Shown here piece after piece: positions 9,863-19,919 of a stretch of 20,000 nucleotides of DNA. The DNA comes from an uncultured virus (IMG/VR IMGVR_UViG_3300020578_000044). Its lineage: Duplodnaviria; Heunggongvirae; Uroviricota; Caudoviricetes. Position 1 is the first letter of the stretch. Each line of letters opens with the position of its first letter. Below the pieces are notes generated by a model, which was not told the origin of the DNA, ran no database searches, and saw only the letters and a list, made by a program, of their open reading frames with translations. Where the stretch lies: the IMG/VR virus record IMGVR_UViG_3300020578_000044; one strand, 5' to 3'. The translations under genes were made by a program, and so were the position numbers.

Positions 9863-10183
9863 CACATATGCGAATAATATCCAAAAAATTTCTTGCGGGC
9901 GACTTTTACGATCAGAAACAACACTGATTTATATAAGATTATATAAGTTTAATAAGGGATAATATCAGGAAAAATTTATGGGGGGGAGATAATGAGTACA
10001 TGTTGTGGCTTCAGACTTTTAACGAGGCCACCCCCCCATGGGGTATGTGCTTGCTAGGAACGACAATGAGCGGTCGTCCACTCCCTACAGTGGTGCAGGT
10101 ATCCCGCATAAAAGGACAGCTCCGATGAACACGTTACCATCGTAAAAGAAATGTGTAGCCATGTTAATGAAAGGATCATCAAC

Positions 10184-10767: not shown

Positions 10768-10803
10768 GGTTCCTTCGGGAATCTTTTTCTTTGAGGATAG
10801 GCC
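10768..10803 (+). repeat. Junction J2: hairpin + T-tract + TTGAGGATAGGCC
   Basis: GGTTCC-TTCG-GGAATC stem; motif 10791-10803; 10777-10812 is identical to 11850-11885. Confidence 0.85.
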
Positions 10804-10889: not shown

Positions 10890-10925
10890 ACGTAATAATC
10901 ACGTCCGGTACGTTAAGCCGAGACA
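10890..10925 (+). ncRNA. Candidate structured leader element, copy A (core CGGTACGTTAAGCCG)
   Basis: 15-nt core at 10906-10920 is identical in four leaders; upstream ACGTA is complementary to the loop. Confidence 0.5.
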
Positions 10926-10947
10926 CTTTCAGATTCAGGAGGAATCA

Positions 10948-11253
10948 ATGGGAGTAAAACTTCCTAGGTGCATCCGTGCGCGTCGGATCGGGCATTGGAG
11001 CTATGGCTCCGACACCTTTTTCGACGCGAACGGGAACAAGGCGCCGGTGACCTGGACCTGCAACTGCGGGTCCAGGATCACCCTGGAGGTATACGACTGC
11101 CAGACCGGCGAGTACACCGACACCCCCAAGGAACTGCTGCAGGCGTTCCTGGCAGAGCACACGGCTTGTGTGGCCATGTGCTACAACTGCCGAAAGGTGG
11201 AGGTGGAGCGCCAGGGATACTGGTGCAACGAGTGCGAGGCCGAGCACTACTGA
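10948..11253 (+). CDS. Cys-rich putative Zn-binding protein, 101 aa (MGVKLPRC...)
   Basis: Start reassigned to ATG 10948 after AGGAGG; CNC, CYNC and CNEC motifs. Confidence 0.8.
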   Translation: MGVKLPRCIRARRIGHWSYGSDTFFDANGNKAPVTWTCNCGSRITLEVYDCQTGEYTDTPKELLQAFLAEHTACVAMCYNCRKVEVERQGYWCNECEAEHY

Positions 11254-11257
11254 CATC

Positions 11258-11343
11258 CAGGCTGATGAGCCCAGCCTGAAGAAAAGAGGAGTTCTCTCCT
11301 ACGCATCCAGCGTAGGGGGAACTTCTTCTTTTGACAATAGACC
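11258..11343 (+). repeat. Trailer family T1 + junction J3 (TTGACAATAGACC)
   Basis: ATGAGCC-loop hairpin 11258-11278 and terminator-like stem 11291-11322; near-identical to 12611-12694. Confidence 0.85.
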
Positions 11344-11377
11344 TGCGAACAGCAAGTAACAGGTCGGAAAGGAAGCC

Positions 11378-11818
11378 ATGAACGTCAATGCCATGAACCT
11401 TATCACCAAATACACAGGAGCCATCTCCATTGTTTGGGATGGTGAAGCGATTACTCAGGTAACCCTGGGTATCGGTACCAAGCACCAGAGGACGGTCTCC
11501 AGGTCGTACCTGGAGGACGGTCAAATCATCTTCTCACGGGAAGATGCCCCTTCCGGGACCATCTGGCCCTTGAGCAGGCAAGAGCTGGAGGAGATCGCCC
11601 TCATGGGTGGCGTCGTGATGCTCCATGCCGATGACCTGTATCGGCTCGTTGTCCTCCCTGAGTGGTGGACGGTGGAGTGCGAAATGGCCATTGAGGGTGA
11701 ATGCCCTGAGTGGCCATTAGCAGAAGAAGAGTCCCCCAAGTCCCTTGGGGAAGTAATGCTTGAAATGATCCAGAGGATCATTGAGGAGGCAGACGATCCA
11801 GATCAATGGGACAAGTAA
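11378..11818 (+). CDS. Acidic hypothetical protein, 146 aa
   Basis: GGAAAGGA SD; fills the unit between J3 and J4. Confidence 0.8.
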   Translation: MNVNAMNLITKYTGAISIVWDGEAITQVTLGIGTKHQRTVSRSYLEDGQIIFSREDAPSGTIWPLSRQELEEIALMGGVVMLHADDLYRLVVLPEWWTVECEMAIEGECPEWPLAEEESPKSLGEVMLEMIQRIIEEADDPDQWDK

Positions 11819-11826
11819 TGCTGAAA

Positions 11827-11876
11827 CCCCGGGGGTCGAAAGGTCCTCGGGGAATCTTTTTCTTTGAGGATAGGCC
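11827..11876 (+). repeat. Junction J4: CCCCGGGGGTC-GAAA-GGTCCTCGGGG hairpin + TTGAGGATAGGCC
   Basis: Motif at 11864-11876. Confidence 0.85.
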
Positions 11877-11885
11877 ATTCTCCTC

Positions 11886-12012
11886 TACGCAGAGCCTGAG
11901 CGTATAATAAATCATGGGTGACGCAGCAGGAGCTAAATGCCTGACAGGTTATCTTACCTTGACAAAAGAGAAACGTAATCATCATGTTCGGTACGTTAAG
12001 CCGGACAACAAA
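11886..12012 (+). ncRNA. Candidate structured leader RNA, copy B
   Basis: 11907-12012 matches 13535-13640 at 105/106 positions; core CGGTACGTTAAGCCG at 11989-12003; 5' hairpin TACGC/GCGTA. Confidence 0.55.
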
Positions 12013-12027
12013 TGATTCGGAGGAATC

Positions 12028-12603
12028 ATGAACGAGTTCTTGTTCAAGGTCTTCGTGGTCTTTCTGACCACGCAGACCAACCTAGCACGGGCCCCCTGGG
12101 CCAAGTGGCTAGGCCACTGCTGGGGGGAGACCACCCAGCACATCGTATACTACTTCGTCACGGGCAAGCACATGTGCTGCCCCTGGCGGGAAGTCCCACC
12201 GGTCGCATGTGGGCATGCGCCCACCTGCGACGAGTATTACTACCAGGCGCTGGACCTGGAGGTGGCCATGGAGGCCGCTTTCAAGTCCGGTGCCCTAGAA
12301 GAGTACACCTACGACAGCCTGATGGCTGCTCTAAGTGACCAGTACCTGGTGCTGAAATGCGCCAAGTTCTGGTTGGACAAACAGGGCACCATCGCCGGTT
12401 TTCCGGCCATGGCCGCCCTGAACGAATTTTTGGAGGATAACAACATGATCCTCCGGGATAATGGCGGACTGATGTCGGGTGCCCCCCAGCATCAGTACGC
12501 CAAGAAGACATTGGTCTTCTCCTCGGACAAGGCGTTCGAGGAGGAGGCCAAGCTGTGGCTGAAGATCCACAGCGCGCAACTTAGGGGCTTCAACAACAGC
12601 TGA
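12028..12603 (+). CDS. Hypothetical protein, 191 aa
   Basis: GGAGGA SD; GC3-rich; bounded by leader and trailer. Confidence 0.85.
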   Translation: MNEFLFKVFVVFLTTQTNLARAPWAKWLGHCWGETTQHIVYYFVTGKHMCCPWREVPPVACGHAPTCDEYYYQALDLEVAMEAAFKSGALEEYTYDSLMAALSDQYLVLKCAKFWLDKQGTIAGFPAMAALNEFLEDNNMILRDNGGLMSGAPQHQYAKKTLVFSSDKAFEEEAKLWLKIHSAQLRGFNNS

Positions 12604-12610
12604 CCCAGAA

Positions 12611-12694
12611 AGGCTGATGAGCCCAGCCTGAAGAAGAGAGGAGTTCTCTCCTACGCAACCAGCGTAGGGGGAACTTCTTCTTTTGACAATAGAC
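12611..12694 (+). repeat. Trailer family T1 copy 2 + junction J5 (TTGACAATAGAC)
   Basis: Direct repeat of 11259-11342 with few mismatches; stem 12643-12674. Confidence 0.85.
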
Positions 12695-12729
12695 TTCTGA
12701 AACCAAAGTAAGAGGTCGGAAAGGTGACC

Positions 12730-13050
12730 ATGTTGGTCAATCTCACCCCCCACCAGATCACTCTGGTGGATGACCTGGGTAACATTATCCAGGTTGTTGA
12801 GCCGGAGGCAACTTCGGCTCGGTGCTCCTCGGAGCGCCAATTCGCCTTCGAGGCGGACAGCATCCGGGTCAACCGGACTATGTTCGGAGAGGTTTCAGGC
12901 CTCCCGGACGAGGTAAACGGGACGTGGTACATCGTGTCACGTATCGTTGCCGAAGCGTCGGGCCGGTCGGACCTGATCATCCCGGATGAAACAGTTCGGA
13001 ATGCCGAAGGACAGATTATCGGCTGCAAGTCGTTCGCGACTTTGGGCTGA
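12730..13050 (+). CDS. Small NLTPH-motif protein, 106 aa (possible Crn4-like ring nuclease)
   Basis: ATG 12730 after GGAAAGG. Motifs NLTPH, GLP, YIVSR, RxDL..P and VRN..GQIIGC. The family link is from recollection and unverified. Confidence 0.8.
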   Translation: MLVNLTPHQITLVDDLGNIIQVVEPEATSARCSSERQFAFEADSIRVNRTMFGEVSGLPDEVNGTWYIVSRIVAEASGRSDLIIPDETVRNAEGQIIGCKSFATLG

Positions 13051-13088
13051 TCTGATGTCAAACAACAATTCACCGAAAGGAGGTGAAC

Positions 13089-13361
13089 ATGAAGAAGCAT
13101 CCAAAGCGGGTGTACGTCTTTAGGCGTGCGCTCGTTCTGGTCCTGGCAGTTTTCTTTGCTGCAGCGGCCTACGGAATGTACGAAGAGCTTACGGGCCCTT
13201 CGTACGAGTGCGAGCAAGCACCCGTGGTCGTTGGGCAGGGAGACACTCTCTGGAGGATCGCTGAAAAGCGATGCGACGGAGATTTGCTGGAGGTCCGGTA
13301 CAAGCTGGTGAAGTCCTACGGGACTAATATCCGGCCTGGACAGGTCATTCAGCTGCCCTGA
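13089..13361 (+). CDS. Membrane-anchored LysM protein (YneA/ChiZ-like), paralog 1
   Basis: SD AAAGGAGGTG; basic N-terminus (RVYVFRR), TM helix, LysM signature VVVGQGDTLWRIA...IRPGQVIQLP. Confidence 0.88.
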   Translation: MKKHPKRVYVFRRALVLVLAVFFAAAAYGMYEELTGPSYECEQAPVVVGQGDTLWRIAEKRCDGDLLEVRYKLVKSYGTNIRPGQVIQLP

Positions 13362-13372
13362 GACCAGAGCCT

Positions 13373-13504
13373 ACTGTGCACCTACAGACAACGATGATCT
13401 GTAGGGTGTAGCGGGGTTTTGCACCCTGGGAACAGAAGCGGGGGGGTCGGCAGTGGGCCGGCTCCCTGTTCTGTTTGAGGAAATCTCTTTTTTGAGGATA
13501 GACC
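13373..13504 (+). repeat. Trailer family T3 (132 bp) + junction J6 (TTGAGGATAGACC)
   Basis: Near-identical to 18650-18781; two hairpins; identity ends exactly at GATAGACC. Confidence 0.9.
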
Positions 13505-13512
13505 ATTGTCCT

Positions 13513-13640
13513 TAGCGCAGAACCTGAGCGCTATATAAATCATGGGTGACGCAGCAGGAGCTAAATGCCTGACAGGTTATCTTACCTTGACAAAAGAGAA
13601 ACGTAATCATTATGTTCGGTACGTTAAGCCGGACAACAAA
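13513..13640 (+). ncRNA. Candidate structured leader RNA, copy C
   Basis: Repeat of copy B; 5' stem TAGCGC/GCGCTA covaries with TACGC/GCGTA around an AGARCCTGA loop; core at 13617-13631. Confidence 0.55.
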
Positions 13641-13656
13641 CGTTCACGGAGGAATC

Positions 13657-13923
13657 ATGAACGTAAACAAGAACAAGATCACCCTCGTGGTGACAGCAAT
13701 CATCTGTGTGCTCCTCGTTCTGGAGCCCACCAGTGAGCTGACGGTGGGGATCATCTCCCTGCCGATCAAGGCCTTCTTCACGATCCTGGGCTTCGGCTTC
13801 GGCCTCGTGAACTGGCCCATGCTCACAGTCGTTGTGATTGGAGCGGGAATCGCCTTCGTGGCGAAAACCCGTACGGTCGATTGGACCGTCGTTAAGAGCT
13901 TCTTCCGCTCGGAAGAAAGCTGA
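13657..13923 (+). CDS. Small integral membrane protein, 88 aa (MNVNKNKITLVV...)
   Basis: Start reassigned to ATG 13657 after GGAGGA; 2-3 hydrophobic segments. Confidence 0.8.
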   Translation: MNVNKNKITLVVTAIICVLLVLEPTSELTVGIISLPIKAFFTILGFGFGLVNWPMLTVVVIGAGIAFVAKTRTVDWTVVKSFFRSEES

Positions 13924-13963
13924 CTATACCTGGTGATGAGTCCACCAGATGAGCAATGGGATT

Positions 13964-14046
13964 GTTTTCCCCGGGGATCGAAAGGTCCTCGGGGAAACTT
14001 TCTTTTTTACCAATAGGCCCCCGAACAACCGAAGGGGTCGGAAAGA
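13964..14046 (+). repeat. Junction J7 (TTACCAATAGGCC) with hairpin and leader
   Basis: Stem 13964-13998; 13991-14046 is identical to 14332-14387 (56 bp). Confidence 0.85.
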
Positions 14047-14056
14047 GAGGAAGGTA

Positions 14057-14239
14057 ATGAACATCAAGGGCGTGGAGGTCCTCTCGTACGAGGAGTACGA
14101 GGGTATGCTCCATAAGGTGGTGACACGATACAAGGTCGTGGGCACGACCTTCGGGTTCAACCGCTTTCAGGCGGGCCCCTTCCAGACGAAGGGAGAGGCA
14201 GAGAAGTTCGCAGCTCTTCTGACTCTTCTGAGGGGCTGA
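14057..14239 (+). CDS. Hypothetical protein, 60 aa (MNIKGVEVLSYEE...)
   Basis: Start reassigned to ATG 14057 after GAGGAAGG; the upstream extension in the ORF track crosses the repeat. Confidence 0.75.
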   Translation: MNIKGVEVLSYEEYEGMLHKVVTRYKVVGTTFGFNRFQAGPFQTKGEAEKFAALLTLLRG

Positions 14240-14302
14240 CGAACTTTGTGGGGCACCGTCTTACCCGGCGCATCTGCTTAGACGGGTCATAGGGCAAGGA
14301 TA

Positions 14303-14387
14303 GTTTTCCCCCGGGGTCTTAACGGACCCTGGGGGAAACTTTCTTTTTTACCAATAGGCCCCCGAACAACCGAAGGGGTCGGAAAGA
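14303..14387 (+). repeat. Junction J8 (TTACCAATAGGCC) with hairpin and leader
   Basis: Stem 14303-14339; motif 14348-14360. Confidence 0.85.
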
Positions 14388-14401
14388 AAGGAGAAATCCG
14401 C

Positions 14402-14779
14402 ATGAAAGTTGTAACATGGTTGTCGTCCACGATGGACCCAACCAAGGGAGTAGCTCCCGGTAAGTGCGTATTCACCGGTGAGTACCCAGGGGTGTTTTGT
14501 GTCCCCTTCGTAGAAGATGGGACGCCTGGAAAGGCACTCAATGATTTCTGGCACTCACCCCGGTATGCCAGAGATCTTCAAGTGATCCTTGAAGTTCCAG
14601 TGGAAAATCTCTTCTTCCGGCTCATGGGCCAAGAGAAGCCACTTCCGATTTACAAGGACGGACGAGTGGCCATCAATCTCATCATCAATAAGTGTTTTGA
14701 TGATGATAATGCAATAATCATCAAGAACTTCGATCCTGCGTGGATCGTTTCTATCAGAAAGGAAGAAAACAATGGATAA
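14402..14779 (+). CDS. Hypothetical protein, 125 aa
   Basis: AAAGGAG SD; overlaps the start of the next gene. Confidence 0.8.
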   Translation: MKVVTWLSSTMDPTKGVAPGKCVFTGEYPGVFCVPFVEDGTPGKALNDFWHSPRYARDLQVILEVPVENLFFRLMGQEKPLPIYKDGRVAINLIINKCFDDDNAIIIKNFDPAWIVSIRKEENNG

Positions 14780-16256
14780 CTACTCAGAGGGATGGAAGGC
14801 CCTCAAGGAGTTTGAGCAGAAGTTCTGCTCTGTCATGGCCTCCGAGGTCGAAATGTCGATCCGGGAGGGAGATTCTGAGGTAGTTGGCTCAGAATTGGTT
14901 TACAACCACTCCTACATGCCCATCCCCCAATACAGGAACGGAAGGGTGAGGGCCAACTTTGAGATGGGTGATAAACTTCACCTGGTCCACCAGAGGCTGG
15001 AAACGCCCGGAAAGGGCAGGGTCAAGTGGGCTCTGCGAAGCTTCCACAGTATCCTCGAATGCGAGGATGGGCGCTACATGCCCAAGAGTCGGTACCTGAA
15101 GGAAGTCAAATTCGCAGTCAATCCAACAGAGGATGGCTACCGATTTCAGATCCTGAAGACACAGGGTGGCAAAACTCGCGTTTACTGGGGGTATAACACC
15201 ATTCATTCAGGACTCCTGCAAGAATTTGTCCATATCTCACTGCGAACAGCGGCAACGAAACTCATTGGTCAATATATGGATCCGCAAAGGATTCATGCAG
15301 TGTTGCAGTGGTTTTCCTACGAACAAACAAAGTATCCCGAGTACTTTGCTAGTGACAACCCTGCGAGTCGTCAATCGCAAGAATTGCAACTTGGCGGACC
15401 GGGATGGTCCCGTATCCTGACCGGTAAGACCGGCGCAAAGGACATCCTGAACGGGATCTATGACCCCAAGGGTATCAGAAGGATTCCTAAGAATGCCTTC
15501 GGTGGCGTCGGGGAAATCAGGACTTTGGACCGTTTAGCCAAAGCGGTTTTCATGACTCGTGCGCTGCGCAGTCTTGATCCGCACACCTTTGGCGAAGTTA
15601 GTAGTGTATGGCCAGACAGACCGATAAATTATAAGTATGAGGGATCATTTGAGAAGGCCGACAAGATTGATTGGCTTGTCAATAAACTTCCGAAACTCAT
15701 TTCTGTAAAGAACATTCAGGAATGTCAGACTCCATATACATACATGGAAGACACAGTCAGGATGCTCAAGCAAATGCCACGAACACTGCGTTCTGCATGT
15801 TTGACTGAGATCCGCAGAAATGCAGCTAGAGGCATTGAATGGGCACACGACTTTGTCGCAACTGAACATGCAAAAGTTGGGAAAGAGAACAAGGACATCA
15901 ATGTCAGTGCACTCAGTAAGTTTGAGGGAACTGTCAATGATGACATTGCGTGTGTAGTTCCCAAGTGCACTCACGATTTGGTTCAGTGGGGCGCTGAGTA
16001 CAACATTTGCATTGGCTCATATGCAGATGAAGTTTACAATGGCAGTACTTACTGCATGGGGTTCCAGAATCCCCAGACTAAGACCTTTTATGGTTTTGCA
16101 CAGGTCAACCCGTGGGACGGACATCTTCTCCAGCTATTGGGTAAGCACAACAACCATCTTCCTGATGTGGAGAGGCTTGCAATTGAGCGTTACCTGGTAA
16201 CGCTTGGTGTCAATGTTGATAATTACTGGGGCAAGCCCCTTGTTGCACTTAACTAA
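14772..16256 (+). CDS. PcfJ-like domain protein, paralog 1 (494 aa)
   Basis: C-terminal VVPK.THDL.QWG.EYNICIGSYAD.V..G...QLLGK.N resembles the PcfJ-like signature (L..EG..M.HCVGSY...Q..G..N); clear paralog of 16871-18310. Confidence 0.8.
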   Translation: MDNYSEGWKALKEFEQKFCSVMASEVEMSIREGDSEVVGSELVYNHSYMPIPQYRNGRVRANFEMGDKLHLVHQRLETPGKGRVKWALRSFHSILECEDGRYMPKSRYLKEVKFAVNPTEDGYRFQILKTQGGKTRVYWGYNTIHSGLLQEFVHISLRTAATKLIGQYMDPQRIHAVLQWFSYEQTKYPEYFASDNPASRQSQELQLGGPGWSRILTGKTGAKDILNGIYDPKGIRRIPKNAFGGVGEIRTLDRLAKAVFMTRALRSLDPHTFGEVSSVWPDRPINYKYEGSFEKADKIDWLVNKLPKLISVKNIQECQTPYTYMEDTVRMLKQMPRTLRSACLTEIRRNAARGIEWAHDFVATEHAKVGKENKDINVSALSKFEGTVNDDIACVVPKCTHDLVQWGAEYNICIGSYADEVYNGSTYCMGFQNPQTKTFYGFAQVNPWDGHLLQLLGKHNNHLPDVERLAIERYLVTLGVNVDNYWGKPLVALN

Positions 16257-16264
16257 GTCTGGCA

Positions 16265-16316
16265 GCCCCTACCCCTTAACTGGGGAGGCATAGTGGTTCG
16301 ATTCCACATAGGGGCA
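16265..16316 (+). ncRNA. 52-nt tRNA-like element (acceptor stem + T-arm, no canonical anticodon arm)
   Basis: GCCCCTA(16265-71)/TAGGGGC(16309-15) + discriminator A; GTGG-TTCGATT-CCAC T-arm; one CCCC-TTAACT-GGGG hairpin. Confidence 0.6.
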
Positions 16317-16357
16317 CTGTTCGCAATCCCGCGGACTATAACATGATTGGAGAAATC

Positions 16358-16693
16358 ATGAAGAAGAAAGTTGAGTGGTGCGGATGCATGGACGTCCGTT
16401 CACCGAAAGAAGGGTTCAAGGACATCTTCTCGAAAGAGTTGGTGGACGGGAAACCACGAGGTGAACTTTGGGAGCTGATGGAAGTGAAGAGTTGGGAAGA
16501 GTTCAAGGATGAACTCTCCGACATTTCCTGGGGAATTGGCCGAATCATTGGCGGATTCCGTGGCAAGGCGTACGTGCGTGTGCCTGGGGATCGAATTCAC
16601 TACGAGAAGGTTGTGAACCGAATTGAGGATTATGGCTGCATCCGCAGCAAGAGGTTCTTGATTGACGGACACTGCCCGAACGAGGGTAAGTAA
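16358..16693 (+). CDS. Hypothetical protein, ~111 aa
   Basis: ATG 16358 after GGAGA (alternative start 16343); followed by hairpin 16706-16731. Confidence 0.8.
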   Translation: MKKKVEWCGCMDVRSPKEGFKDIFSKELVDGKPRGELWELMEVKSWEEFKDELSDISWGIGRIIGGFRGKAYVRVPGDRIHYEKVVNRIEDYGCIRSKRFLIDGHCPNEGK

Positions 16694-16789
16694 AGAAAGA
16701 AAGGTGGCCCCGGGGAATTCGCCTCGGGGCCTTTGACTGAAAGGAGAACAGTAAGACGAACTACCGTACTGATCAGAAAAAAGGGGTCT

Positions 16790-16864
16790 GTTCCCGGGGA
16801 GAAATCCCTGGGAACTTTCTTTTTTGAGGTTAGACCTCTGAAACCAAAGTAAGAGGTCGGAAAG
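16790..16864 (+). repeat. Junction J9 (TTGAGGTTAGACC) with hairpin and L3-family leader
   Basis: Stem 16790-16815; leader TAGACCTCTGAAACCAAAGTAAGAGGTCGGAAAGG has 1 mismatch to 12690-12724. Confidence 0.85.
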
Positions 16865-16870
16865 GTCGTC

Positions 16871-18310
16871 ATGACCGATTTCTACTCCAAGGGCTGGAAG
16901 GCCCTCAAGCAGTTCGAGCAGCAGTTCTGCTCGATCCCTGAGCGTGATGCCCAAGACACCATACTATCAGCACCCTTTCAGACATACTATCGGGGCGATA
17001 CCGATGGGTCGACATTGGTGCACAACACCTCGTACCTGCCCACACCAGGGCCTTATGGTGTCTGTATGTGGGAAACCGGTGACAGGATACACCTGATCCA
17101 CACGCGGCTCGACCTTCAGCCGGCTGGCAAGGTCAAGTGGGCGCTGCGAAGCTTCCACGGCATCTTGCAAATGGATCCGACCATAGGGCGCTACATGCCC
17201 AAGAGTCGGTACCTGAAGGAAGTCAAATTCGCAGTCAATCCAACAGAGGATGGCTACCGCTTCCAGATTTTGAAGACACAGGGTGGCAGAACCTGTGTCT
17301 ATTGGGGATATGATCCGGAGAAGTTGATGCAAGAAATCGGCGATCCGGAGATGTGGAGAGCGGCGCGCAACGTCGTTTACAAGTATCTGATTCCGGATCA
17401 GATGTATAAAGTGTTGCAATGGTTTCGTTCGGAAAACCCCGTAGAGGAAACCGAACAATTGCGACTTGGTGGACCGGGATGGTCACGGATTTTGACTGGT
17501 AAGACCGGCGCAAAGGACATCCTCAACGGGGTCTATGACCCGAAGGGTGTCAGAAGGATTCCTAAGAACGCCTTTGGTGGTGTAGGGGAAATTCGAACCC
17601 TTAACGCTTTGGCAAAAGCGGTCTTCATAACTCGTGCGTGGCGCAGTCTTGATCCGCACACCTTTGGCGAAGTTAGCAATGCTTTGTCAAAGGATTTTCG
17701 TCTTGTCTATAATGGGTCATTTGAACAGGCTGACAAAATTGATTGGCTTGTCAGTAGAATTCCCAAACTGCCTATCGGTAGGGAGGAAAACTTTGAATCT
17801 ATTGACCTTTTGTCCATTGAGGACATGATCACAATGCTCAAGCAAATGCCCCGAGCTTTGCGTTCTGCGTGTTTGGCTGAAATACGCAGAAGCGCAAATC
17901 GGGGTATGCAGTGGGCACACGATTACGTTGTCCTTGAGTTTAACAAACTGAAAACAGCCGACAAGGTAATCGAGCAGGATGAGCTCAGCCGGTTCGAGGG
18001 AACTGTCAACGATGACATGATTTGCGTGGTCCCGAAGTCCACCCATGATTTGGTTCAGTGGGGGACTGAGTACAACATCTGTATCGGTTCATACGCAGAT
18101 CGCGTGTACCGTGGAAACACCTTGTGTATGGGGTTCCAGAACCCTCACACCAAGAGTTTCTACGGTTTTGCGGAGGTCAATCCGCAGAACAAGAAGCTTG
18201 TCCAACTGCTGGGCAAGTACAACCACAGTCTTGATAATCTGGACAAGCTTGCCATTGAGTGTTATCTAACCTCGAAGGGAGTTGGTGTTGATTTCTATCG
18301 GGGTAAATAA
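16871..18310 (+). CDS. PcfJ-like domain protein, paralog 2 (479 aa)
   Basis: Colinear paralog of 14772-16256 with the same C-terminal motif. Confidence 0.8.
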   Translation: MTDFYSKGWKALKQFEQQFCSIPERDAQDTILSAPFQTYYRGDTDGSTLVHNTSYLPTPGPYGVCMWETGDRIHLIHTRLDLQPAGKVKWALRSFHGILQMDPTIGRYMPKSRYLKEVKFAVNPTEDGYRFQILKTQGGRTCVYWGYDPEKLMQEIGDPEMWRAARNVVYKYLIPDQMYKVLQWFRSENPVEETEQLRLGGPGWSRILTGKTGAKDILNGVYDPKGVRRIPKNAFGGVGEIRTLNALAKAVFITRAWRSLDPHTFGEVSNALSKDFRLVYNGSFEQADKIDWLVSRIPKLPIGREENFESIDLLSIEDMITMLKQMPRALRSACLAEIRRSANRGMQWAHDYVVLEFNKLKTADKVIEQDELSRFEGTVNDDMICVVPKSTHDLVQWGTEYNICIGSYADRVYRGNTLCMGFQNPHTKSFYGFAEVNPQNKKLVQLLGKYNHSLDNLDKLAIECYLTSKGVGVDFYRGK

Positions 18311-18313
18311 CAA

Positions 18314-18406
18314 GTTTTTCCCCGGGGATCGGCAGAAATGCTGGTCCTCGGGGAAACTTTCTTTATAGGCATCCAGCCATGTCCACTAAACCAAAGAAAG
18401 GAGGTG
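18314..18406 (+). repeat. Junction J10 (degenerate, CTTTATAGGC) with hairpin and L1-family leader
   Basis: Stem 18314-18357; ATAGGCATCCAGCCATGTCCACT..ACCAAAGAAAGGAGGTG matches 10557-10598. Confidence 0.8.
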
Positions 18407-18413
18407 AACAAAC

Positions 18414-18638
18414 GTGTTCAACACACGAATCCCTCTTTCGAACGGATCGTACATCTCGTTGGCCCAAAACGAAATGTGCGTCCTCAGAGAGGAGTTCGTC
18501 CCCACTCTGGAGTGGGCGGGTGTCGAAACGCAGGATGATATCCTGCGGTTCGATAACCTGTCAACACTCCGGACGTTGTTGGATAAGGCGGAAGCCTGGA
18601 GTCTGAAGACTCCGGATCCGTCTTCCGACAACTCGTGA
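18414..18638 (+). CDS. Hypothetical protein, 74 aa
   Basis: GTG start after AAAGGAGGTG SD; bounded by leader and T3 trailer. Confidence 0.75.
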   Translation: MFNTRIPLSNGSYISLAQNEMCVLREEFVPTLEWAGVETQDDILRFDNLSTLRTLLDKAEAWSLKTPDPSSDNS

Positions 18639-18649
18639 CGACGAACGCA

Positions 18650-18781
18650 ACTGCGCACCTGCAGACAACGATGATCTGTAGGGTGTGCCGGGGTTATCCA
18701 CCCTGGGAACAGAAGCGGGGGGGTCGGCAGTGGGCCGGCTCCCTGTTCTGTTTGAGGAAATCTCTTTTTTGAGGATAGACC
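18650..18781 (+). repeat. Trailer family T3 copy 2 + junction J11 (TTGAGGATAGACC)
   Basis: Direct repeat of 13373-13504. Confidence 0.9.
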
Positions 18782-18848
18782 GACCGGGTCTACCTACGGT
18801 CCCAGCACAACAGGATCTAACCAATCCGCTGGGAGAAAGGGAGGCATC

Positions 18849-19121
18849 ATGCAGAAGCTGCCCAAGCGAGTGTACGTCAAAAGGCGTATCCTCGTGGCTG
18901 CTCTCACGGTGTTCTTTCTGATGGCCGGATGTGGCATGATCAAGAAAGTGACGAGCCCCTCGTTCACTTGCCCGGATCGCACCCACACGGTTCTTCAGGG
19001 GGAAAGTCTCTGGACCATTGCTGAAAAGCATTGCGACGGAGACCTGCTCGCTGTACGTTACCATCTGACACAGGCCTACGGGCCCGTGATTCAGCCCGGT
19101 GACGTCATCGAGCTGCCTTGA
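18849..19121 (+). CDS. Membrane-anchored LysM protein (YneA/ChiZ-like), paralog 2
   Basis: GGGAGG SD; RVYVKRR, TM helix, HTVLQGESLWTIA...IQPGDVIELP. Confidence 0.88.
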   Translation: MQKLPKRVYVKRRILVAALTVFFLMAGCGMIKKVTSPSFTCPDRTHTVLQGESLWTIAEKHCDGDLLAVRYHLTQAYGPVIQPGDVIELP

Positions 19122-19259
19122 CGGCAAGTCGGCTCACTGAACCAGCAGTAATCTGGGAAGTCGCAACACACGACTAAAGATAATAACTCATATGAAGTTG
19201 GCATTGGTTACTTGCCTTATATAAGTATGAGTGAATTATTATGTGTTTTATTTGTGGGG

Positions 19260-19347
19260 AAACCCCGGGACTCGTATCGATCCGAAGGGCACACCGATGG
19301 GTGTGTAATTCGTGCGAGTTCTGGGGTTTTCTCTTTGAGGATAGACC
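19260..19347 (+). repeat. Junction J12: long hairpin + TTGAGGATAGACC
   Basis: AAACCCCGGGACTCGTA.../...TGCGAGTTCTGGGGTTT stem; 19323-19347 is identical to 19976-20000. Confidence 0.85.
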
Positions 19348-19531
19348 GCATCCTCAAGGTGACCGTGCTTTAGTCACACGCCCCTCGTTAGGGGAAGGGC
19401 CGTAGGGCCAAGACATCGCACAACTACCGACCCACAACCATGTGAGTGGGACCTAATGGGGAACTGATGGGAAAACTGAGCCACATATTCGCTCAGCCAG
19501 AAGGAAACCAGAAGGTGAGAAAATCATGAGA

Positions 19532-19571
19532 AACGTGGAATCAGCCCTGTCCGGTACGTTAAGCCGAGACA
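19532..19571 (+). ncRNA. Candidate structured leader element, copy D
   Basis: Core CGGTACGTTAAGCCG at 19552-19566 within a TGTC...GACA stem; upstream AACGTG. Confidence 0.5.
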
Positions 19572-19589
19572 CCAAAGGAGGAGGTCCGC

Positions 19590-19919
19590 ATGGACCTGAT
19601 CATAAAATTCGTCACCTACGTGGTGGCGGGTAAGTACAACGACCTGGTGGGTTTCGGCCCCCAGATCGTCGTCAACGGAAAGCCGATCACGCTCGAGGCG
19701 TGGGTCCCCCGCAACAAGAAGGCTCGCAAGGGCTCCGAAGTCACGGGAACTCCCACCATCGAGGTTGAGGAGGGCACTCAAATCACCAAGTCCTACACAA
19801 AGGACGGGGTGGAGGTGCTCCTGCCGGTCTGGAAGTTGCGGGTTGTGGTAAGCGGGGACTACGAGTTCTCGCAGCCGAAAACCGTGTCCCTCCAGGATTT
19901 CTTCAGGGACAACGTCTGA
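19590..19919 (+). CDS. Hypothetical beta-rich protein, 109 aa
   Basis: AGGAGGAGGT SD; GC3-rich codons. Confidence 0.8.
   Translation: MDLIIKFVTYVVAGKYNDLVGFGPQIVVNGKPITLEAWVPRNKKARKGSEVTGTPTIEVEEGTQITKSYTKDGVEVLLPVWKLRVVVSGDYEFSQPKTVSLQDFFRDNV

Follow-up and report, generated by a model that had tools for sequence, protein, structure and literature searches.

What is the role of a 15-nucleotide (nt) sequence that recurs, letter for letter, just ahead of the ribosome-binding sites of unrelated small phage genes? We addressed this question in a 20,000-nt stretch of DNA (hereafter the window; bases 85425-105424) of the 179.6-kb virus record IMGVR_UViG_3300020578_000044, which is rated 85% complete and comes from an uncultured, tailed lake phage of low GC content (~36%). 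The repeat, CGGTACGTTAAGCCG, forms the core of a hairpin that is under selection for pairing and is kept by compensatory changes. Its loop is under selection for sequence, and the hairpin is placed at the 5' edge of the unit that it precedes. It is found much more often in phage DNA than in that of bacteria and is best read as a phage leader RNA module that has not been described previously.

The 15-mer is present in four exact copies in the window (A to D, at 10906, 11989, 13617 and 19552), all on the + strand and at precisely the positions listed in an initial annotation of this DNA. No further match was found in the window when up to three mismatches were tolerated; shuffled windows contained a mean of 0.26 matches, and none of 200 shuffles reached four. 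A fifth exact copy, E, lies ~1.1 kb past the window, at window coordinate 20649, and the whole record holds five forward, zero reverse and zero control matches. The features around copies A to D, including the Shine-Dalgarno (SD) sequences and the open reading frames (ORFs, with lengths in amino acids, aa) behind them, are as follows.

10890..10901, + strand: upstream element of copy A, ACGTAATAATCA; the ACGTA within it complements the loop
10903..10924, + strand: hairpin of copy A, GTCCGG - TACGTTAAG - CCG(A)GAC, with a bulged A
10937..10950, + strand: SD sequence AGGAGG and ATG behind copy A; 101-aa Cys-rich ORF at 10948-11253
11972..11984, + strand: upstream element of copy B, AACGTAATCATCA
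11985..12007, + strand: hairpin of copy B, TGTTCGG - TACGTTAAG - CCGGACA
12012..12030, + strand: ribosome-binding-site hairpin of copy B, ATGATTC-GGAG-GAATCAT, spanning the SD sequence at 12019-12023 and the ATG at 12028 of a 191-aa ORF
13600..13612, + strand: upstream element of copy C, AACGTAATCATTA
13613..13635, + strand: hairpin of copy C, TGTTCGG - TACGTTAAG - CCGGACA
13648..13659, + strand: SD sequence GGAGG and ATG behind copy C; 88-aa membrane-protein-like ORF at 13657-13923
19532..19543, + strand: upstream element of copy D, AACGTGGAATCA
19548..19571, + strand: hairpin of copy D, TGTCCGG - TACGTTAAG - CCG(A)GACA, with a bulged A
19576..19592, + strand: SD sequence AGGAGGAGG and ATG behind copy D; 109-aa ORF at 19590-19919

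Much of what the initial annotation described in these leaders is indeed there: the stems, which read GTCCGG/CCG-A-GAC in copies A and D but TGTTCGG/CCGGACA in the other two; an upstream (A)ACGTR with AATCA behind it, at 10890, 11972, 13600 and 19532; and the short distance to unrelated genes. From the end of the 15-mer to the SD sequence there are 16, 15, 16 and 9-10 nt in copies A, B, C and D, respectively, and no Pfam family is shared among the four ORFs behind them. Leaders B and C have 162 nt in common at 90% identity and leaders D and E ~220 nt, while leader A is unlike any other. Thus, the five copies are not independent events and represent three leader types.

Folding with ViennaRNA gave each copy a stem, a U.G closing pair and the loop ACGUUAA (the nine letters UACGUUAAG). 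The stem comprises 6-8 base pairs and is free in sequence, the loop U-ACGUUAA-G is invariant, and the only other fixed part, confined to the lake-phage lineage, is the upstream element (A)ACGU[A/G]..AAUCA. When viral contigs were scanned with the 15-mer alone, a query that leaves the flanks unconstrained, 59 loci in 24 sequence families were returned, which we weighed by their flanking pairs and context. At least three extra flanking pairs form in 10 of the 24 family representatives, against a chance estimate of ~5% that assumes equal base frequencies. An alignment of 22 rows, from which five families with 0-1 extra flanking pairs were excluded (L007, L013, L018, L036 and L059; in L013, the only one of these that was translated, the motif lies inside an open frame), has three pairs outside the core that form in 19, 18 and 15 rows with 4-6 pair types each. 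The covariance model built from this alignment recovered one diverged copy, L072, in which the core stem is replaced (GACGGAG/TTTCGTC) and the loop and upstream element are kept.

Scans that fixed only the upstream element and the loop yielded 27 viral loci and 53 metagenome loci (57 matches, 27 distinct forms) and revealed at least 10 different complementary stems, among them TGCACAA/TTGTGTA, GTTCAA/TTGAAC, GTTCAG/CTGAAC, TGTCCGA/TCGGATA and TATTCGG/CCGAATA. All distinct rows from these scans, including 11 chance-like and 3 bulged ones, were combined into a 33-row alignment, in which 75.8% of cells pair, compared with 59.2 +/- 1.9 in shuffles and only 22-46% in slid-control alignments. Both sides have changed in 42 cells (16.5 +/- 3.6 in shuffles), and double changes occur at all seven of the seven variable pairs. 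The initial annotation had proposed a conserved sense-strand RNA hairpin just ahead of its unit and had called for a covariance model of homologs; the stem does covary around an invariant loop, with a covariation score that none of 500 shuffles reached.

The closing U.G is invariant, and 19 more G.U cells are found among the 22 real rows, together with 12 A.C cells for which the outermost column and the bulged rows are the suspected source. The orientation of the motif always matches that of the downstream gene. Together, the G.U pairs and the gene-matched orientation favour a sense-strand RNA over a duplex-DNA site or a template-strand hairpin. We therefore judge it very unlikely that the element acts at the DNA level, whether as operator, as promoter or as a single-strand hairpin promoter like those used by virion RNA polymerases. 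Such a site would suit a short sequence that is conserved close ahead of transcription units, with ACGT palindromes within it and, overlapping leader C, one sigma-70-like match (TTGACA-18-TATGTT). However, duplex DNA has no need of a stem that is free yet complementary, each sense-strand G.U is an A.C mismatch on the template strand, and leader types A and D have no counterpart of the sigma-70-like match, which, as the only one, was rejected as a promoter. Nor was an RNA polymerase detected by Pfam/PHROGs in the 152 Pfam-scanned ORFs of the record (24 + 128), in the 3718-aa ORF (Pfam, PHROGs) or in eight other large ORFs (PHROGs). The polymerase scans left the 2231-aa and 1691-aa ORFs without explanation and gave no support for the giant ORFs as polymerases.

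Two further readings of the repeat were considered and rejected. Translated, the 15-mer gives RYVKP, and the frame concerned is open in copy A as well as in candidate short ORFs of leaders B and C. The stem variants alter the encoded residues and yet keep pairing, and we therefore discarded a peptide signal. The candidate short ORFs, at window 11914-12015 and 13542-13736, are possibly leaderless: a TATAAT-like box precedes the start codon by five bases (ATG 11914 in leader B), and the frame crosses the hairpin, ending in B 12 nt before the main ATG. In a related locus, L090, the two substitutions at the start of the short ORF both fall on third codon positions. An antisense partner was dismissed because the genome has a single reverse-complement copy of the loop (113695), which lies in a coding frame, that of a small protein which by eye resembles a helix-turn-helix regulator. 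This small ORF (genome 113,560-113,720, ..LSGQSITDIAQKHSLTYERTRQII..) is located just past the GC-rich block described below and may encode a regulator.

We compared the hairpin to known RNA families and found no relative. With Rfam 15, whose models include twister, pistol, hatchet, hammerhead and the riboswitch classes, there was no match at the motif in the window (E <= 1) or in scans of 15 loci (E <= 0.1), 5 loci (E <= 1) and 13 loci (E <= 10), none in the regions upstream of the hairpin in L010, L014, L021, L041, L006 and L043 (E <= 0.1), and none in wider loci around L010, L006 and L043 (E <= 1). A strong Rfam hit, which by the initial annotation would have refuted novelty, is absent, and the resemblance to twister P4 that it had pointed out is not supported, as far as models can tell. 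Both are short GC-closed hairpins with AAGC in the loop region; the other core elements of twister are absent here, and even at E <= 10 neither twister nor any further ribozyme model gives a match. A full-text literature search with the 15-mer sequence returned nothing akin, judged by the titles listed. The passages and searchable supplements of a viral structured-RNA catalogue hold nothing like the hairpin, and nothing like it is described in the accessible passages of PMC10690425 and bioRxiv 10.64898/2026.09.22.753630.

Next, we explored the occurrence of the hairpin outside the lake-phage lineage, where it precedes RNA units of a different kind. The 15-mer ends 8-11 nt before transfer RNAs (tRNAs) that Rfam calls in four related phage families (L010, L014, L021 and L041), two unrelated phages (L035 and L058) and one bacterial assembly (L229). 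By sequence likeness, the tRNA-linked families account for 31 of the 59 viral loci. In L035 and L058 the hairpin stands ahead of the first tRNA of a cluster, and in L058 an Rfam DUF3800-I RNA lies upstream, with the hairpin inside an insertion in the 3' hairpin of that match. L010, L014, L021 and L041 were also seen to carry a structured non-coding region ~200 nt upstream of the hairpin, with compensatory changes. In L006 and L043 the hairpin ends a conserved, unclassified structured region. Copies linked to tRNAs or non-coding RNAs (ncRNAs) often have GGAAACC 9-18 nt upstream, resembling the GAAAC that starts the lake-phage element, and the five tRNA/ncRNA-linked genomes have one strong copy each. 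No U run follows any of copies A to E, so in the lake phage itself the hairpin lacks the form of an intrinsic terminator.

These carriers have little else in common. A BLASTP comparison of four genomes with SD-linked copies and five with tRNA- or ncRNA-linked copies found that a helicase family and one small family (in two genomes) are all that these groups share, a search that could miss tiny or remote proteins. The 17-mer form turned up 19 times in 596 Gb of bacterial and archaeal genomes, mostly without a stem; one of these occurrences is tRNA-linked and two are in Glutamicibacter. This scarcity in bacterial genomes indicates that the motif is essentially a phage feature. The Glutamicibacter occurrences (L214 and L232, in two species) form the hairpin in a conserved, seemingly non-coding stretch, beside other GC-rich hairpins.

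The constant short distances to tRNA 5' ends and ribosome-binding sites, and the position at the 3' end of structured ncRNAs (L058 behind the DUF3800-I RNA, the L010 family, L006/L043), are what one would expect of an RNA processing signal or self-cleaving element that parts a leader or ncRNA from the mRNA or tRNA downstream. We nevertheless regard this as rather unlikely, given that no ribozyme family matches at E <= 10, that the conserved core is merely a hairpin loop, and that BLASTP across the nine genomes found no shared nuclease.

In the lake-phage lineage, (A)ACGU[A/G] located 15-19 nt upstream complements the loop bases UACGUU. The complement amounts to six pairs in most lake-phage copies, five in A and L044 and four in L252, and minimum-energy folding of leaders A, B and C leaves the upstream element unpaired. 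Neither side of this helix varies, and it hence shows zero covariation; the complementarity is consistent with a possible pseudoknot between loop and upstream element in the lake-phage leaders. The tRNA-linked copies in other phages are without the ACGU complement.

A second structure lies between the hairpin and the gene. In most of 28 distinct leaders the pre-SD segment pairs with the SD/AUG region (GGAGGAAUCAUG) at -6 to -12 kcal/mol, with a mean z of -2.4 versus shuffles; L044, L055 and D are weaker or not above shuffles, the three values being -3.0, -7.2 (with z=0.1) and +0.6. The minimum-energy fold of leader B contains such a hairpin, ATGATTC-GGAG-GAATCAT, over its SD sequence and ATG. 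The distance from the end of the extended stem to the SD sequence is 3-15 nt in most lake-phage leaders with a clear SD call, the exceptions being L044 and L011 at 17 and 32 nt.

An H-type pseudoknot whose stability is set by a small molecule or ion, so that the ribosome-binding-site hairpin opens or not, could be assembled from these parts: the six-base complement in most lake-phage copies, an upstream element left unpaired in the folds, and the ribosome-binding-site hairpin directly downstream. Such a riboswitch is in our view decidedly unlikely, since the downstream genes are unrelated rather than members of one pathway, and elsewhere the hairpin, with no complement, stands ahead of tRNAs or closes ncRNAs. 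Moreover, the second helix, invariant on both sides, lacks covariation, the related leader L252 retains only four of six pairs, and the conserved part is very small for an aptamer. Of the undescribed cis-regulatory RNA suggested by the initial annotation, the conserved hairpin is upheld, and the riboswitch-like option is unlikely. Phage translational operators, such as the gene 32 leader pseudoknot in passages of PMC10690425, resemble the lake-phage leaders in being small 5'-leader structures near the ribosome-binding site with a possible H-type pseudoknot. They differ in that each serves one gene and that gene's own protein, whereas the present hairpin precedes unrelated genes and tRNAs.

The genomic setting of the copies is unusual. 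The phage encodes a T4-type large terminase, capsid, baseplate J, RecA, ThyX, class II ribonucleotide reductase and a WhiB-type regulator, the last of which we take to suggest an actinobacterial host. All five copies are located in a ~16-kb GC-rich block (50-57% GC in the 1-kb bins of the window) that extends from window 9930 (near 10000) to about 27000, or genome 95.4-111.5 kb. Contigs from three of four independent lake-water runs bridge its left low-GC/high-GC junction, which argues that the block is not an assembly chimera. Megablast of the block against GenBank phages gave no match. The block is an array of small genes whose junctions are ordered as a terminator-like hairpin, a T run and the box TTTGAGGATAGRCC. 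Terminator-like sites number 30, compared with 9.7 +/- 2.8 in shuffles, and ~13 strong + strand terminator hairpins were identified in the block. The box occurs 11 times in the genome, always on the + strand and only in the block. The junction boxes in the window are listed below.

10550, 10790, 11863, 13491, 16823, 18768, 19334 and 19987, + strand: the eight junction boxes in the window
10790..10803, + strand: junction box TTTGAGGATAGGCC, behind a terminator hairpin; opens leader A, 116 nt ahead of the 15-mer
11863..11876, + strand: junction box that opens leader B
13491..13504, + strand: junction box that opens leader C
19334..19347, + strand: junction box that opens leader D, 218 nt ahead of the 15-mer

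Five cassettes have long leaders (116-218 nt from box to 15-mer), each ending in the motif, and in L090 an A-type gene stands behind a B-type leader, a leader/gene swap between relatives. At the junctions a second hairpin was frequently seen next, directly 5' of the SD sequence (GACC..GGTC GGAAAGG). These surroundings recall the promoter-early stem-loop (PeSL) cassettes of T4-type phages, which likewise combine a terminator hairpin with a conserved box and show leader/gene swaps. A PeSL, however, is the cassette junction itself and not an extra leader hairpin, and the junction box here is not a sigma-70 promoter.

A region so full of terminators raises the question of processive antitermination, in which a linear element and a loop-specific hairpin load a factor onto RNA polymerase, or themselves act on it, to read through cassette terminators or untranslated tRNA/ncRNA clusters. 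The parallels with lambda-type nut sites (boxA + boxB hairpin) are considerable. A conserved linear element lies directly 5' of a small fixed-loop hairpin, specificity resides in a loop that is conserved while the leader stem varies, and the motif is phage-specific and found in leaders, in a single orientation, in a terminator-rich block. In three independent phage lineages it also stands ahead of the tRNA that opens a cluster. We still consider a nut-like role unlikely. The motif is always within ~16 nt of an SD sequence or ~11 nt of a tRNA, a closeness to the downstream gene that the lambda nut site is not known to need, and only 5 cassettes carry it compared with the 11 junction boxes. The loop differs from that of nut in sequence and size, and is common to phages with almost no shared genes, among whose proteins the nine-genome BLASTP comparison found no N-like or other shared factor.

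The opening of the loop with UACG, right after the stem, also invites comparison with the anticodon arm of a tRNA, which the hairpin might mimic in order to be edited by, or to titrate, a tRNA-directed enzyme such as TadA, for which the model would be the anticodon loop of tRNA-Arg2; an in-frame UAC would be recoded from Tyr to Cys. Passages of PMC12255301 state that TadA needs a four-base UACG set in a stem-loop, that its mRNA sites require the seven-base YTACGAA, with two to three deviations in 5% of 381 sites, and that point mutations in the motif abolish editing. The repeat, as G-TACG-TT, fits YTACGAA at only four of seven positions and is mostly non-coding. We accordingly rejected it as a TadA editing site, and mimicry of this kind appears highly improbable.

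Comparison of these possibilities leads us to favour, tentatively, a cis-acting leader RNA module that is recognised through its loop and acts after transcription on the unit behind it. In the lake phage the module would sit in the 5' leaders of a subset of the small-gene cassettes, and its loop would be read sequence-specifically by a putative trans-acting partner. Since unrelated phages share the loop and almost no proteins, the likelier candidates for this partner are a host machine and a very small phage protein. The hairpin probably governs the ease with which the neighbouring hairpin burying the SD/AUG opens, and so might control translation; alternatively, it may mark or protect the 5' boundary of the unit and thereby control processing or stability. 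The upstream complement could serve as a pseudoknot or alternative-pairing strand that tunes access to the loop.

Several observations count against this proposal of a loop-recognised leader module. This genome offers only three independent leader types. Every search either fixed the loop or found no leader with an alternative one (a loop-free scan gave 23 loci in 9 distinct forms, of which 3 forms, at 7 loci, are related leaders that all have the same loop), and the invariance of the loop is therefore partly a search artefact. The upstream element and the pre-SD segment pair only weakly overall (mean z -1.0); a neat three-part switch, which would need this pairing, is not supported, and we rejected it. 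A role in translation cannot account for the copies ahead of tRNAs, and the U run behind the hairpin in L006 and L043 makes those copies look like a plain terminator. Finally, a run search for this DNA returned 20 DNA runs (lake water metagenomes) and 0 RNA runs.

A broader form of the proposal, which we regard as speculative and somewhat unlikely, is that the hairpin belongs to a pan-phage set of RNA signals for unit starts. These would be tiny loop-specific modules placed before genes, tRNAs and small RNAs that engage a universal host machine (RNA polymerase, ribonuclease or ribosome) with no need of a phage protein; the lake-phage version would be built into a pseudoknot switch gating the translation of selected early cassettes. 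If a host machine does read the loop, the hairpin would be a compact and portable RNA control element, used by phages of differing hosts and base compositions on several kinds of RNA unit. It would then provide a new handle on the timing and tuning of early genes and tRNA clusters in large uncultured phages, and a small part for synthetic biology.

Further features of the block were recorded alongside the motif. Contigs in two of four runs join window 10947 to 11256, skipping exactly the ORF behind copy A, which suggests a population variant without the gene in which the leader is kept, at low depth (5-6). The ORFs behind copies D and E are unrelated and yet end alike (..FFRDN; window 19880-19919 and genome 106,440-106,475), the repeated junction sequence starting inside the 3' end of the gene. 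The block begins (window 9930-10010) with an AT-rich stretch followed by AAATTTATGGGGGGGA, a start also seen in another phage record (G003; L068), and its far end is likewise flanked by G runs, near genome 112,440. Between a PcfJ-like gene and the next cassette, window 16265-16317 contains a tRNA-like fragment with a T-arm-like GGTTCGATTCC, in which ARAGORN called no tRNA and Rfam gave only a weak, chance-level match on the opposite strand. The PcfJ-like gene is one of two paralogous ORFs of 494 and 479 aa (window 14772-16256 and 16871-18310), which have a PcfJ-like C-terminal domain and share 72-91% DNA identity over long stretches.

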